A stretch of DNA of 64,000 bases, taken from positions 364,208 through 428,207 of the forward strand of contig LBWK01000001.1 in assembly GCA_000993565.1 (NCBI GenBank), read 5' to 3'. The position numbers are program-made. This stretch comes from a candidate division WS6 bacterium GW2011_GWF2_39_15. GTDB taxonomy: Bacteria > Patescibacteriota > Dojkabacteria > SC72. Of this stretch, positions 12,001 through 18,000 are shown in pieces (position 1 is the stretch's first letter; every line of letters begins with the position of its first letter).

Positions 12001-15000
12001 CTTCCTTAATATACTCAGGGTAAAAACAGTTGAAGATATCGCATCAGGGTCTGGACCAGCGTGCGAGACAATAAGTATCTTATCTGCTGAGTCAATTAAA
12101 TTCTTCAAACTTTCTTCCTTCATGCAGTATCTATCTCTTCCAAGTATTTATGGCGGAGAGGCAGGGATTCGAACCCTGGGTGAGTTGCCCCACAACGGTT
12201 TTCAAGACCGTCCCATTCGACCGCTCTGGCACCTCTCCAACTTGAGCATTTTATCAAAATATCAGCGGGAAATCATTATTTATCAAACAATATCCTGATT
12301 ACATTCTCCAATTTCATCTCTTCTATATTGAGATCCTCAACCGGAAAATCCTTAAGCAGTTTTGATGATACATTGGCAACATCACTTCTCTTAACCCTGA
12401 TTGTTCCTACATGTCCATTAAGAGAAACTACCTCCCCAAGCTTTTTTATATCTTCAGGGTCTATCTGTTTAGCACTGACAAAGGATATGTTTCTATATAT
12501 TGCGTGCTGATTCACCAAACTACTTATACTTCCGTCATAAATAAGACGACCGCCATCAATGATTATAACCCGCTTACATAACTCCTTCACATCATCCATA
12601 TAATGGCTGGTCAGCATAACAGTCGTACTATACTTCTTATTGTAATCCTTAAAGAAAGTTCTCAATTTCTTCTGCATAACAACATCTAAACCAATAGTCG
12701 GCTCATCCAAGAAAAGAACCTGAGGAGCATGCAAAAGTGATGATAGAAGTTCACACTTCATTCTCTCCCCCAATGAGAGCTTTCTAACAGGAATATTAAC
12801 CACCCGAGCCAGGTTAAGCAGGTCAATCAGGTCATCAACACGTGGATAGAATTCACTATCAGGAATCTCGTATATCTCCTTATTCAACAAGAAAGAATCC
12901 ATAGCAGGAAGATCCCACCACAGCTGATTCTTCTGCCCCATAACCAAAGCAATACGTTTAAGATAATCACTTTCTCTCTTCCACGGAGTATACCCCAAAA
13001 CAGAAACCTCCCCGCTTGTAGGATACAAGAGACCTGAAAGGCACTTCAGGGTTGTTGTCTTACCCGCACCGTTTGGGCCGATGAAACCTACAAATTCCCC
13101 TCTTTCTATACTAAACGAGACATTATTTACAGCCTTAACCACGGAATATTCCCTCTTGAAAAGATTCTTTATTGTTCCCTTTAAACCAGGGGCTTTTGTA
13201 TATATTTGAAACTCTTTTCTGAGATTTTTAACCTTTACGTCATACTTCATTCACTCATTCTATCACATATAATTGACTCTATAACAGTATTAAAATAATA
13301 TGGAAACATGAAGAGAACAAGTTTGATATTAATCATTGTAATACTAATCTCCTCCTCGTTATCATATTTATACGCTGATAACTTGGAATCTCCCAATTAT
13401 AAGATTGTAGATGCTACGACAAACGGAGGAGGAGAAACTTCGACCTCGACAGGTTACAACCTATTAAATACAATCGGAAGCTTCTCCGGCGATCCACGAG
13501 TCTACTCAACTAATTATAGAGGAGGTCTTGGGGCAATAGAGATATTTCTTGCAAATGTTCCTCAAATATCGTGTTTTGAGACTACATCCAACGGATCATC
13601 CAATTGCACAACCGGACCATCGTATTTAAATACCAATGGAATGACAACAGTATGCGGACCCGCCGGATGCTACGACAGAGCCAGATTTGAGATAGACACA
13701 CAAAACAATCCAGCAGATACTTTGTACGGGGTTCAGATCTCACAGGACAATTTCGCAAGTGACATAAGATATATTGACGGAGTAACGTTTAAGCCTAAAA
13801 CATCCAACCAACGGACAATAAATGACTATCTAACAAAAGCCGCCTGGGAAACAAACGCCATTAACATAACCGGCCTTATAGCAGGAACAGAATATGACTT
13901 AAGGATTGTAGGATTACATGGAGATTTTACAGAGTCTGAGCCCGGACCTATTGCAACGGCAACAACTGCAAGTACATATATGACTTTTGATCTCGATATA
14001 GACAACACCTCCGGAATCAGCGCAGAAACAGCCCCGCCATATATAGTAGATTTTAGTACCAGCCGTAAGCTTATACAAACCGGCCCCCCGCAAACCGCTG
14101 CAGATTTAATCTGGATGGATTTATCAACAAACGCATTAGGGGGATTTGCCTTAGTACAGAAAGGCTCTTCCGGCGGTCTGCACAGTACGAGCCAAAGCTA
14201 CACAATACCTTCAGACAACTTCGACTTAGATGGCCAAAGTGAGGGGTTCGGGCTCCAAACATATTACACGGCACAGGAAAGAAATACCTCCAGCGGCAAT
14301 GGAGATCTTGGAACAGTTGATACGGTCGCTGAATATGACGGTAGCGGCAATGTAGTGGGCAAGGTTGGGCAACTGTTTATCAAAGTATTTGAAAGTAGCA
14401 AACCTGTCTTAAACGGAAGAGCGGGAATGCAGTTAAAGGCAAGAGCTTCCGGTACGACGCCTGTTTCATCAGATTACACTGAAGATATTACTTTCATTAT
14501 GGTGCCACGTTATTAGAGCATATCTTATAACCGAAATCATTTGACATTGGATGTTATATTGCCATATTCTGTATATGCGTAAATATTATTATAGTCTACG
14601 ATAAGTTAAAGATTACTTGTATGAAATCATTAATTAGACCTGTCCTGATAACACTTGTCTTGGGTTTTGCTTTACTGTTTGTTATTCCAAGATTTGTAGC
14701 AAATGCAGATAGCCTTACCTCAGTGTATTTTTACCTATCCAGAATGCAGGCAAATATTAATGGATCTTCTGCCACTGTAGAGTACCTAATTGCATTTGCT
14801 CCGACTCAAACAATTCCAACTGCCGGAACAGTATCAATAGTTTTTCCTGATGCAGACGATGGGAACTGGTGCAGAACTCAGGGAGCATTAACCATCACAG
14901 CAGTATCATCATCTATAGTAGATTTAACAGGTACCAATTGGGATATTGATGCAGTTCTCCCAAACAGCGGATCCGCACTAACAGCAACATGTACTGCCGG

Positions 15001-18000
15001 TTCAGGAGCAAGCAGCTCTGACACAATTACCGTTTCAAATGTAGGTGCCTTAACTGGAGGCACAACGTACGGACTCCAACTTGCCAATGGAACTGCAGCA
15101 GGAGTCATCGGAACCGATGATACGGCAGGTAGCCACCCAACGACAGTTACATCCTCAAGTGGTGCAACCATTGACTCTTCCACTTTTGATCTGGAACTGG
15201 TTTCAAATGATATAGTTACAGTATCAGCTACGGTTACAGATGTACCAACGGTAAACTGTTCAATTAGCAGTAACACTGTTGATATTGGCTCATTATTCCC
15301 TGGGGGTGCATATTCAACTGCTACACATACAATATCAACTTCAACCTCCGCAAGCTCAAGCGGTTACTACTGGGCCGCTTACGGAACAGGAGATGGAAGC
15401 ACTGATGCAGGTTTATATAAATCAACAGCTACAACATATCTCCTCGCCTCAACGGGAAGTGCAACAATTAGTCTCACAGGTATAGGAACAGAAGGATTTG
15501 GGATGACGGTATCCGACCCGGACACTGCGGGTGCAGCTGTAGTTCCCGCGGACTTTAGTGATGCATCGGCAGGAACATTCGGATCATTAGATCGGGCAAG
15601 TGCAGGAGCTCAATTAATTCTTTATCAAAACGGAGCTCAAACCAGTGCAGATGTTTCTACAATTACTTACGGAGCAAAAGCCAGCGGTTCTGCAGAAGCT
15701 GGTTCATACTCTGAAGAAGTTCACTTTATCTGCGGTGCATACTACTAGACCGCCAGAGTTTAAAGATGTAGTATTCTATAAATGAAAATCGCAACTACAA
15801 AAAAGATTGTCTACCTTGCTGTATCCATTCTATCAACGGTACTTTTTTTTAGTATTAATAAATCAGCATACGCATTGGGCGAAGCAGGTTTATCAATTGG
15901 TTTTGCCCCTACAGCTGTATATTTGGAACTAGAGCCTGGAAAGACCTACAAAGATAAATTAACGTTCTGGAATCTTGCTCCATCAACAATAACTTATGAT
16001 GTTAAGATCAAGGGTTTCAAACAGATTGAAGATGTACCTGGTACCTCAAGAATACAGACTGATTTTGAAGAGTTAAACGACCCGTATAGTGCTGCCAAGT
16101 GGATAAAGGTAGACAAAGAAAGTGTGCAGTTACACCCTAATGAGTACTTCATTCTCCCATATACAATTCAAGTGCCCGAAGACGTCGCAGCCGGAGAATT
16201 TCACGCATTAGTCTACCTTGAATCTCAAAAGCCCACAAATAGTTCCAATACTTCATCAATAGCTTTAGCGGATTTAGGCTCCGGACCGGCATTCCTCATC
16301 ACAACGAGTAAAGACTTAGTAGAAGAGGCAGAAATAGAATTTTTCAAACCTGAACAGGTCTTTTATGAATACCCTCCGGTAAAACTTCTCACAAGATACC
16401 TAAACAAAGGAAATACCCATATAACTCCGGCAGGCGATATCATCTTTTACAATTTTTTAGGGCAGGAAGTGGACAGAATACAGTTCAACCAGCATAAACA
16501 AAGCCTACTAAGATCAAATGCGGCAACTTATGTAAATGATTGGGAGAGTGATGGTCTATTTCTCAAAAACGGGAAGGTTGCAATCGGACCAATCGAGGCA
16601 AAACTCATCACAACATACCGGGCTAAGTTTCCTGGGTTTGCCCCACTTAGTGCAACAACTTCATTCTGGATATTACCCTGGAAAATTATGTTAGCAATCC
16701 TTCTGGCAATTGGTGCAATTATCTATATAATAACTAGGAAGAGAGTCAAGAAGAGTTCTGAGAACCCTTCTACAGCATATATAAACAATCCATACTATGA
16801 CAACAGTCCACACCAAAATACTGCAAATCCTAACTAGAATCTTCGTATCCGCACTCACCCTCTCTCTTTGCTTCCCAGTAAACATTGTTCTCGCAAATAC
16901 ACTCTCAGTAGGAACCAAAGAGTATATCCTAACCCCTAGCGACATTGAGTTTGGAACCCTGGACTTCACCAGTTCAGATAAAAAGAATATAGAAATGGTC
17001 GTTTCAGTAAAATCCTATGACCCAAAAAGTGAGAGCTTCCTCGACACAAAACCTTTTATTGGACTCAACAAGAGTTCGTACCTGATAAAACCGAATGAAA
17101 CGATATCAATATCATATGCGATAGCGATCCCTGCAGAACAGCCGGAAGGAACATACTTTAATGTGATAACTATTGAACCCAAAACAGGAATAAATACAGG
17201 AAGTGGAAATACTTTGGTGAGTATAAAAAATGGTTTCGGAGCACTCTTTGCATTTCATATAGAATCCAAAAACAATAATATAGACAAAATATTTATGGAT
17301 AAAAGCGACACACAGCTAATCCTTGAAGATCGTGGAATCCCTTATATCTCGCCGATGAAGATAAAATATATATATGAAAATAAATCAAATTTTGTTTTTA
17401 AGCCGCAAGGAGAGATTAGAATACTAGACAACAAAGGAAAACAGGTATCAAAGAGAATAGTTATCAATACCGATGCTAAAGCCATTTATCCCGGAGAAAA
17501 GATTGAGATAACAGAAAAAATATGGCCGTGGAGTAACCCCAAAGAGTTTTTCGATACGAGAGTTATAACCGCAAGAACTTATAATGGATTTACTGAAAAC
17601 TACCTTACGAACCAAATCAAAGTAAATATTAAGGAACCGCTAATTGTCCTAACCGGAATAACAGCTGTATTGATATTATCTCTTACCTACACTCTGGTAG
17701 CAGCCGTAAAAAAAGGATCACAAAAGAGATCTTCTACACAATCATCAGAGTAGTCCTGAAGGATGTTTTGGCAACATTTTCCAGCTCAGCTATGCCATAT
17801 TTGCTTACAAACTGCTTCCCCTGCTCTATTACGTTTGTAGCTCCTTTGGGGAAAACAAATGCATACTGCTGACTCAGCCTATCCATCTGTTCAACAAAGT
17901 ATCTGCGGGCAATTACTGATGCGGCAGCCACAGTTAAATCCTGGCTTTCAGCATGATGCATCTGTTTGAACTCAATACCCGACATATACTCCTCAAGCCT

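Follow-up and report, generated by a model that had tools for sequence, protein, structure and literature searches.

What would four consecutive genes for exported proteins build at the surface of a Dojkabacteria cell? The question is raised by a block of genes, here called A, B, C and D, located within a stretch of 64,000 nucleotides (nt) of candidate division WS6 bacterium GW2011_GWF2_39_15 (accession no. LBWK01000001.1); this whole stretch is referred to below as the window. Comparative analysis indicated, with a probability of roughly 0.65, that the block is a minimal member (two pilins and two chaperones) of the Pam-type systems, i.e. the usher-less, chaperone-assisted surface-assembly systems of bacteria of the candidate phyla radiation (CPR). 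Its products would probably form a donor-strand filament.

A previous reading of this DNA, made without database searches (the sequence-only reading), had proposed four open reading frames (ORFs) at 13251–17753 and had considered them a possible uncharacterised adhesin or surface-layer system. The four ORFs were confirmed and all lie on the + strand, where they form an island amid housekeeping genes of the − strand. The label "uncharacterised" has been superseded, since the block appears to be a divergent member of the CPR Pam pilus system, for which NCBIfam holds the models NF058578, NF058579 (PamT; cut-off 240 bits) and NF058581 (pilin C-terminal domain; 55 bits), and the idea of a surface layer found no specific support. 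The genes were assigned as follows.

13308–14516, + strand: gene A, 402 amino acids (aa), putative secreted, minor or tip-like Pam-type pilin
14621–15748, + strand: gene B, 375 aa, candidate major shaft pilin
15782–16837, + strand: gene C, 351 aa, predicted membrane-anchored PamD/WxLIP-type chaperone-like protein
16797–17753, + strand: gene D, 318 aa, second predicted membrane-anchored chaperone-like protein, paralogue of C

The reading frames of C and D overlap by 41 nt. Proteins B and C are identical (100% each) to the database entries UT34_C0001G0379 and UT34_C0001G0380, respectively.

Pam pili have been described in Candidatus Mycosynbacter amalyticus, where PamA, PamB, PamE and PamT are pilins, PamC and PamD are chaperones, and PamR completes the set (bioRxiv 10.64898/2026.03.03.709456). 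According to the same source, the pilins begin with a beta-sandwich at the N-terminus, continue with a linker strand that is donated and end in a truncated immunoglobulin (Ig)-like C-terminal domain, and they form linear filaments as seen by cryo-EM; PamC and PamD resemble the chaperones PapD and FimC and carry a C-terminal transmembrane (TM) helix, PamT is the tip pilin, PamR is an RbmA-like, TM-anchored terminator or anchor, and contact with a host or a surface has been proposed as the role of the pilus.

Architecture of the four proteins

Hydropathy analysis revealed a single N-terminal hydrophobic segment followed by a small-x-small motif in all four proteins. The residues at positions −3 and −1, as read from the sequence, are compatible with cleavage by signal peptidase I (LYA↓D, ANA↓D, AYA↓L and VLA↓N in A to D, respectively). 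An additional C-terminal TM-like segment is present in C (residues ~292–322) and D (~276–305), followed in each case by a tail rich in K and R. The signal peptides, and the single C-terminal TM helix with a basic tail that had been ascribed to C and D, were thus borne out, as was the Thr/Ser/Gly-rich composition of A (T+S+G = 32%) and B (T+S+A+G = 51%). The predicted domains are listed below.

A: signal peptide 1–23; PamT-like N-terminal segment ~24–85; Cys-containing fn3-like middle domain ~86–215; Pam-type C-terminal domain ~240–402, ending ...YTEDITFIMVPRY
B: signal peptide 1–29; N-terminal beta-sandwich ~30–194; linker (candidate donor strand) ~195–210; Pam-type C-terminal domain ~211–375, ending ...AGSYSEEVHFICGAYY
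C: signal peptide 1–31; Ig-like domain 1 ~39–148; Ig-like domain 2 ~170–297; TM helix ~300–326, then a basic, presumably cytoplasmic tail
D: signal peptide 1–33; TM helix ~280–305; basic tail

Proteins C and D belong with the Pam chaperones and WxLIP proteins

The most distant match of the search with protein C (P0146) is encoded in a locus of another genome, L050, where it occupies the PamD position and adjoins ATP synthase genes. This locus exceeds the curated NCBIfam cut-offs, scoring 267 bits for PamT (cut-off 240) and 382 bits for PamR (cut-off 300). Its genes are arranged in the order PamT-A-E-D-R-B-C, and the Pam pilin C-terminal domain occurs in three of its other proteins. Its PamC and PamD served as the reference in the chaperone comparisons given below.

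Comparison by BLASTP showed C and D to be paralogues (E = 1e-7), a relationship that the sequence-only reading had not mentioned. For the comparison with PamC and PamD, C and D profiles were built from Dojkabacteria sequences only. Alignment of these profiles with the L050 proteins using hhalign gave probabilities of 98.9% (E = 2.9e-17) for C with PamD, 95.6% for C with PamC, 97.3% for D with PamD and 96.5% for D with PamC. The alignments span 269–310 columns, i.e. nearly the full length of the proteins.

The AlphaFold2 model of C (mean predicted local distance difference test score, pLDDT, 82.6) comprises two beta-sandwich domains (residues 39–148 and 170–297) and a TM helix (300–326), so that the Ig-like folds which the earlier reading had suggested looking for in the anchored proteins were indeed predicted. 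The best Foldseek matches of this model were Enterococcus faecium WxLIP structures, namely 9i25_C, "bound to long WxL" (7.7e-12), and 9i1y, followed by RbmA and by the chaperones CfaA (3.6e-9) and CsuC (5.5e-8) of chaperone-usher systems. The likeness to CfaA and CsuC is at the level of the fold only (TM-score about 0.5 on the target), with no sequence similarity.

In the case of WxLIP, the similarity extends to the sequence. The profile of the C/D family matches the solved protein EfmWxLIP1 (E = 2e-5), and 25 of the 27 C/D-family members match the Pfam family WxLIP_PGBD, the window copy of C itself scoring below the Pfam cut-off (14.7 vs 27.3 bits). A Firmicute profile constructed from four WxLIPs of plasmid-borne WxL clusters gave full-length alignments, with a probability of 98.0% (E = 2.9e-13) for the D family and of 90.2% (E = 1.5e-6) for the C family. 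The parallel with the WxL/DUF916/DUF3324 clusters drawn by the sequence-only reading therefore reflects, in the case of C and D, true homology. Moreover, the true PamD of L050 (8001–9089) exceeds the gathering threshold of Pfam PF06030, WxLIP_PGBD (28.5 vs 27.3 bits). Since PamD passes this threshold and the profiles are homologous over their full length, C/D, PamC/PamD and WxLIP form one family; by this sequence measure, the Pam chaperones are formally members of the Firmicute DUF916/WxLIP family. The preprint describing Pam pili (bioRxiv 10.64898/2026.03.03.709456) makes no mention of WxL, DUF916 or Dojkabacteria, and no paper tying WxL clusters to donor-strand systems was found in the literature searched.

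Proteins A and B share the C-terminal domain of Pam pilins

Pairwise comparison of A with B by BLASTP yielded nothing significant (best E = 3.8); the domain common to both is visible only with the use of profiles. When profiles of 69 A-family and 66 B-family sequences were aligned, residues 253–399 of A were found to be colinear with residues 223–372 of B (E = 3.6e-4). The aligned region takes in the EGFG motif and the ending Y-x-E-x-[IV]-x-F, confirming the alignable C-terminal module with EGFG and an aromatic ending that had been noticed before. The N-terminal halves are unrelated: A contains a PamT-like segment and an fn3-like domain, and B a separate beta-sandwich. The earlier description of A and B as paralogous hence stands for their C-terminal domain, which is also matched in both by the Pam profile described below, and fails for their N-terminal halves.

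A profile of the Pam pilin C-terminal domain was constructed from 26 pilins, taken only from loci without a BLAST-detectable relative of A or B; their source was a set of 38 further loci gathered around PamC/PamD relatives. In hhalign comparisons this profile aligned with the B family (B196–375, 171 columns, 66.7%, E = 5.3e-5) and with the A family (162 columns, extending to the C-terminus of A, 68.1%, E = 4.8e-5), and the two chaperone profiles used as controls gave 1% and 11%. The conserved FG of the Pam profile aligns with the EGFG of A and B. A hidden Markov model (HMM) of the same Pam-only alignment was also run against 713 ORFs from Dojkabacteria genome loci and 713 reversed decoys (1,426 targets). 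It detected the window proteins A (E = 4.9e-6, residues 260–402) and B (E = 8.3e-5); at E <= 1e-3 all of its matches belonged to the B family (29 proteins) or the A family (4), whereas the best decoy had E = 3.4 and no decoy or unrelated ORF scored below E = 1.7. An iterative search seeded with the PamE domain reached B-type proteins in round 3 (E = 2.4e-9) with zero decoys. Judging from these profile comparisons, the remote domain of ~150 residues that A and B have in common is the Pam pilin C-terminal domain.

The terminal motifs may be compared directly: AGVYTTTLTYICTGRF of PamE and AGLYSATLSLIAVGTF of PamB stand alongside AGSYSEEVHFICGAYY of B, and IYTTKINYIAAPQY of PamA and RYSADFSAVAVPTF of PamT alongside DYTEDITFIMVPRY of A. 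The sequence-only reading had considered this C-terminal module a possible sorting signal. That role was rejected: the motif corresponds to the last beta-strand of the pilin domain, and no other copy was found in the window.

Protein B, the candidate shaft pilin

The AlphaFold2 model of B (pLDDT 87.9) consists of two beta domains (residues 34–194 and 211–374) separated by an unstructured linker of lower confidence (195–210). The whole length of B could be aligned with PamE (336 columns at E = 5e-4) and with PamB (361 columns at E = 1.8e-3), and NF058581 is matched by 13 of the 66 B-family members (best E = 1.6e-5). Sequence and profile searches with B, the B family and the Pam C-terminal domain gave no match in the PDB copy used, in which PamA and PamB are not represented. 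Conservation along B is uniform, with no peak at the linker.

The median identity to the window's proteins, determined in the same genomes, is 60% for B (45 genomes), 46% for A, 43% for C and 29% for D, the corresponding values for housekeeping proteins being 53% for cysteinyl-tRNA synthetase (CysRS), 42% for RNase HII and 67% for RecR. B evolves as slowly as core housekeeping proteins, given that its median identity exceeds that of CysRS, and such conservation would be expected for the subunit of a tightly packed polymer. The best-supported reading of these sequence data is that B represents the shaft pilin of a Pam-type system, with a presumed ability to polymerise.

A tandem duplication of B was observed in one genome (L013, 8730–11122). 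In another (GCA_020632435.1, JACKFP010000001.1; locus L001), a gene divergent from the A-B-C-D block (5247–7979, − strand) encodes a protein of 910 aa, which begins with a B-like signal peptide, N-terminal domain and linker (B residues 9–209, 39% identity, E = 8e-32). This protein lacks the C-terminal domain of B and instead contains many Cys-rich repeats, TM segments and CarboxypepD_reg-like domains. A role as a donor-only terminator or as a membrane anchor, functionally analogous to PamR, is conceivable. No counterpart of it is present in the window.

Protein A, a candidate minor or tip subunit

The NCBIfam PamT model (NF058579) matches residues 5–75 of A (E = 1.9e-4) and is matched by 19 of the 69 A-family members (best E = 5.3e-8). 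The fn3 domain was detected in 40/69 members, and PDB sequence and profile searches with A and the A family returned weak fn3 matches only. Three features of A, namely an N-terminal SxNY segment like that of PamT, a VPxY/F ending and variable insertions, suggest a putative role at the tip, in which A would be a minor subunit, probably located distally and adhesive.

In three loci (L018, L022 and L025) the A gene carries an insertion of ~230 residues, giving a product of ~630 aa, and longer relatives of A (P0101, P0110 and P0113) contain a Laminin_G_3-type domain (Pfam PF13385). The variable insertions of A, together with the duplication of B mentioned above, fit an exposed, ligand-binding subunit.

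Conservation of the gene order and promoters

The B family was found in 47 loci from 47 species-representative genomes, and it is present in every Dojkabacteria genome sampled. Wherever the sequence allows it to be followed, the order A-B-C-D on one strand is invariant in the 47 species loci, so that the doubt whether the homologs cluster together at all was dispelled. The order is also kept in L001, a genome in which the block has different flanks. The region surrounding the block is syntenic across the class.

Two promoter-like elements were located in the block.

13273..13301, + strand: promoter P_A, TTGACT-17-TAATAT, ending 6 nt before the ATG of A
14541..14570, + strand: promoter-like element in the A–B spacer, TTGACA-16/18-CATATT/TATTCT

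A promoter scan alone did not rise above chance (10 sites found, 13.2 expected), and a terminator scan gave nothing informative. The consensus-like promoter for a leaderless transcript, which the sequence-only reading had placed before A, is nonetheless retained in evolution: the element TTGAC[TG]-N17/18-TAnnnT occurs upstream of A in 35/40 orthologous loci, and in 28 of these 35 the −10 box ends 6–8 nt before the ATG. This arrangement supports a leaderless transcript of A. In the sole database entry identical to A (P0001), the protein is 397 aa long and begins five codons later (at 13323 vs 13308); the ATG at 13308 is favoured as the leaderless start because of the conserved promoter geometry.

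An element of the form TTGAC[AT]-N17/18-TAnnnT also precedes B in 31 of 48 loci, and a short CTGCC-like motif was seen just 5′ of the B start codon in several loci (A–B spacer, positions 14517–14620 of the window). The conserved spacer element and this motif suggest that B may have a separate promoter and a conserved 5′ leader.

Comparison with known assembly systems

Among the CPR loci compared, the module always consists of one or more pilin genes followed by one or more genes for anchored chaperones. The variants (pilins + chaperones) are 5+2 plus PamR, 3+1, 2+1, 1+2, 1+3 and, in Dojkabacteria, 2+2, and PamR is confined to loci of the Saccharimonadia type. In a further CPR lineage (L052, 4000–9344), a small pilin-chaperone-pilin module of this family lies directly downstream of a PilM_2 gene; three small ORFs alongside PilM_2, upstream of the module, may be type IV pilus assembly genes.

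The Dojkabacteria block resembles the Pam pilus locus in several respects. In both, the pilins possess a C-terminal domain of ~150 residues ending ...G-x-Y-[ST]-x-x-[ILV]-x-[FY]-...-[FY], the (candidate) shaft pilin is built of an N-terminal beta-sandwich, a linker and this domain, and two paralogous chaperones (95.6–98.9%) have two Ig-like domains and a C-terminal TM helix. The pilin genes precede the chaperone genes in one operon, there is neither an usher nor a sortase, and the host is a CPR bacterium. However, the Dojkabacteria block encodes only two pilins, both below the curated NCBIfam cut-offs, and lacks PamR, PamA and PamE. A has an fn3-like insertion, with a Laminin_G_3 insertion in some relatives, and the block is fixed among housekeeping genes, away from ATP synthase. 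Dojkabacteria (WS6) are not named in the preprint on Pam pili, and their filament is predicted here from the genes.

WxL proteins have been described as peptidoglycan-bound monomers rather than filaments (PMC10599100). WxLIP consists of DUF916 (PF06030), DUF3324 and a TM helix, and its complex with a WxL client has been solved (PDB 9i25). As in WxL clusters, one or more secreted clients are followed in the block by an anchored protein, C and D are full-length WxLIP homologues with two Ig-like domains, a TM helix and a basic tail, and insertion of a beta-strand into the client has been proposed or solved. The block differs in that it occurs in another phylum, A and B have no WxL domain, and no LPXTG protein or sortase is encoded. 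In agreement with the earlier remark that WxL motifs are lacking, A and B contain no W-x-L motif, and no Pfam WxL match was obtained with the 135 family members. WxL profiles were constructed from 8 and then from 18 WxL domains; similarity to A and B was not significant (18-domain profile, E = 0.23 with B and E = 0.86 with A), and the assignment of A and B as WxL-domain proteins was rejected. Among the window ORFs, no C-terminal LPxTG signal and no TLxTC sortase signature (hallmarks of WxL clusters and sortase-assembled pili) were found.

With chaperone-usher pili (Pap/Fim, CFA/I, Csu) the block shares a two-Ig-domain chaperone (C compared with CfaA and CsuC), an Ig-like pilin domain and, presumably, donor-strand complementation and exchange. 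In contrast to those systems, there is no outer membrane and no outer-membrane usher, and Pfam, NCBIfam and window ORF profile searches detected no usher-like gene among the four genes of the block. Sequence similarity is not detectable, the chaperones are membrane-anchored instead of soluble, the pilins have two domains, and the presumed donor strand is the inter-domain linker and not an N-terminal extension.

Alternative explanations

Several observations weigh against assigning the block to the Pam-type systems. The window contains no PamR-like ORF, no PamA, no PamE and no further component, and the block is not adjacent to ATP synthase genes. The window copy of B has no NCBIfam match at E <= 1 and does not reach the 55-bit cut-off of NF058581, and that of A scores 20.9 bits with the PamT model, over its N-terminus only, against the curated 240 bits. 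The remote similarities to pilins have E-values of about 1e-4 to 1e-6 and hhalign probabilities below 70%, and Foldseek comparison of full-length B with the PDB returned only generic two-domain Ig-like adhesins and integrin legs (TM-score <= 0.28). The similarity of A to PamT (E = 1.8e-3) is hardly greater than that to PamB (E = 3.3e-3), which makes its role at the tip uncertain. Finally, a WxL-like display complex that does not polymerise would account for the 2:2 stoichiometry just as well. In such a complex, C and D would each hold one client (A or B) by beta-strand complementation, and A and B would act as monomeric adhesins without forming a filament. The homology of C and D to Firmicute WxLIP over their full length speaks for this arrangement, as do the best structural match (a WxLIP bound to a WxL protein), the pairing of two clients with two anchors in a block devoid of a PamR-type terminator or anchor, and the layout common to WxL clusters, where small secreted proteins are followed by an anchored one. 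This main rival of the Pam-type reading is nevertheless considered unlikely: neither A nor B contains a WxL domain, genes for an LPXTG protein or a sortase are missing from the block, and both A and B carry the Pam pilin C-terminal domain, B being composed of two domains and a linker like the filament-forming PamB and PamE. Conservation of B at the level of housekeeping proteins would also be unusual in a monomeric surface adhesin.

The same high conservation, the richness of B in Thr, Ser, Ala and Gly, its apparent own promoter and its presence in every Dojkabacteria genome sampled could be reconciled with a two-dimensional surface layer or sheath, formed by B with the assistance of C and D, in which A would be a minor, layer-associated protein. 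Since no similarity to any S-layer family of Pfam or NCBIfam was found, and the specific similarity is to pilins that form linear filaments by cryo-EM, a layer of this kind appears very improbable. There is even less reason to believe that the divergent ABC ATPase upstream of A is a functional partner energising the export or assembly of the block's products. The sequence-only reading was right that this orphan gene is divergently adjacent in the window, where it shares a 57-bp intergenic region with A, and in 24 of the 38 genomes with upstream sequence it lies immediately upstream of the block. However, it is not at that position in the remaining 14/38, and the relocated block of L001 lacks it, so it is not a consistent neighbour; moreover, adjacency carries little information because the whole region is syntenic across the class. 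No permease gene is adjacent, all four proteins have Sec-type signal peptides, and Pam operons have no such ATPase. On these comparative grounds, the ATPase was rejected as a part of the system.

Proposed mode of assembly

If the block encodes a Pam-type system, as is preferred here, the operon would be transcribed from the conserved sigma-70-like promoter, with a predicted start on or beside the ATG of A, yielding a leaderless mRNA, and the second promoter-like element in the A–B spacer may boost the expression of B. Judging from their signal peptides, all four products would be exported by the Sec pathway and cleaved by signal peptidase I. C and D would be retained in the membrane by the C-terminal TM helix, with the basic tail inside and, according to the modelled architecture, two Ig-like domains outside. 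By analogy with their PamC/PamD and WxLIP homologues, they may complement, by means of a beta-strand, the presumably incomplete Ig-like C-terminal domains of A and B and so bind these proteins. B would then polymerise by donor-strand exchange, the inter-domain linker strand of one subunit being inserted into the C-terminal domain of the preceding one. The filament would probably be capped distally by A, whose fn3-like domain may constitute the adhesive end. As the block contains no PamR-type anchor, one may speculate that the base is held by a chaperone that remains bound or by a protein encoded elsewhere. By analogy with Pam pili, the likely role of the structure is contact with a host or a surface.

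Genomic surroundings of the block

The genes flanking the block in the syntenic region, and the individual features located next to it in the window, are given below.

Upstream flank: ABC ATPase, DHH phosphoesterase, tRNA
Downstream flank: RNase HII, CysRS, RecR, YbaB
12276–13250, divergent from A: ABC ATPase gene
12154–12238, − strand: tRNA gene (Rfam RF00005, 56.9 bits), flanked by the genes for the DHH-family protein and the ABC ATPase

An Rfam scan of 12000–19000 detected nothing but this tRNA. The GC skew is strongly negative (about −0.2) across most of 12001–18000 and near zero over 14001–16000, a pattern that fits a + strand island among − strand genes.

Elsewhere in the window (1959–3821, + strand), a protein of 620 aa has a signal peptide and, towards its C-terminus, TM segments. 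Read by eye, one part of it, ...CMEYSDALTAIFRAQGIPARIAIGY...HQWTQVWIPDYGWISIDPTW..., resembles a transglutaminase-like Cys-His-Asp core. The protein did not match any pilin or chaperone profile.

Many of the genomes in which a Dojkabacteria-type block and synteny were found (L005–L048) are titled "uncultured Candidatus Saccharibacteria bacterium", and one short contig (L029) "Gammaproteobacteria"; these NCBI labels look unreliable for taxonomy.

Significance

The kind of system considered here is already known (preprint and NCBIfam, 2026). What appears to be new is its class-wide minimal form in Dojkabacteria, overlooked by the curated models, its constant location in the genome, apart from ATP synthase, and the place of the Pam chaperones within the WxLIP/DUF916 family. 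It is tempting to go further and to regard CPR Pam pili and Firmicute WxL clusters as two branches of one ancient, usher-less assembly system of monoderm bacteria, in which an anchored chaperone (WxLIP, PamC or PamD) completes an incomplete beta-sandwich client and hands it over. The WxL and Pam C-terminal domains would then be homologous, and the 2+2 block of Dojkabacteria would be close to the minimal form. This common origin is proposed only tentatively. Its chaperone half is shown at the sequence level by PamD passing WxLIP_PGBD and by full-length profile homology; its client half is hinted at by the sequences. The 18-domain WxL profile and the Pam C-terminal domain gave a colinear, non-significant alignment (E = 0.042), with the motif pairs VTDxRGxxGWxL/vxTNAxxGYxv and aGsYsTTLTWxL/paGxYtxtityxa.

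On the reading preferred here, four genes labelled "hypothetical", which belong to the core gene set of an entire CPR class, would acquire a function, and the Pam pilus family would be extended to Dojkabacteria, a branch missed by the curated Pam models of NCBIfam, in its simplest known form of two pilins and two chaperones. This 2+2 form would be a convenient target for reconstitution and for defining the minimum requirements of usher-less donor-strand assembly. Two literatures are joined as well, that on Pam chaperones and that on the WxLIP/DUF916-DUF3324 proteins of lactic acid bacteria, enterococci and Listeria. The placing of Pam chaperones in the WxLIP family suggests a common mechanism of surface display in monoderm cells and yields a testable prediction on the handling of WxL proteins. 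In episymbiotic CPR bacteria, such filaments would be prime candidates for contact with the host.

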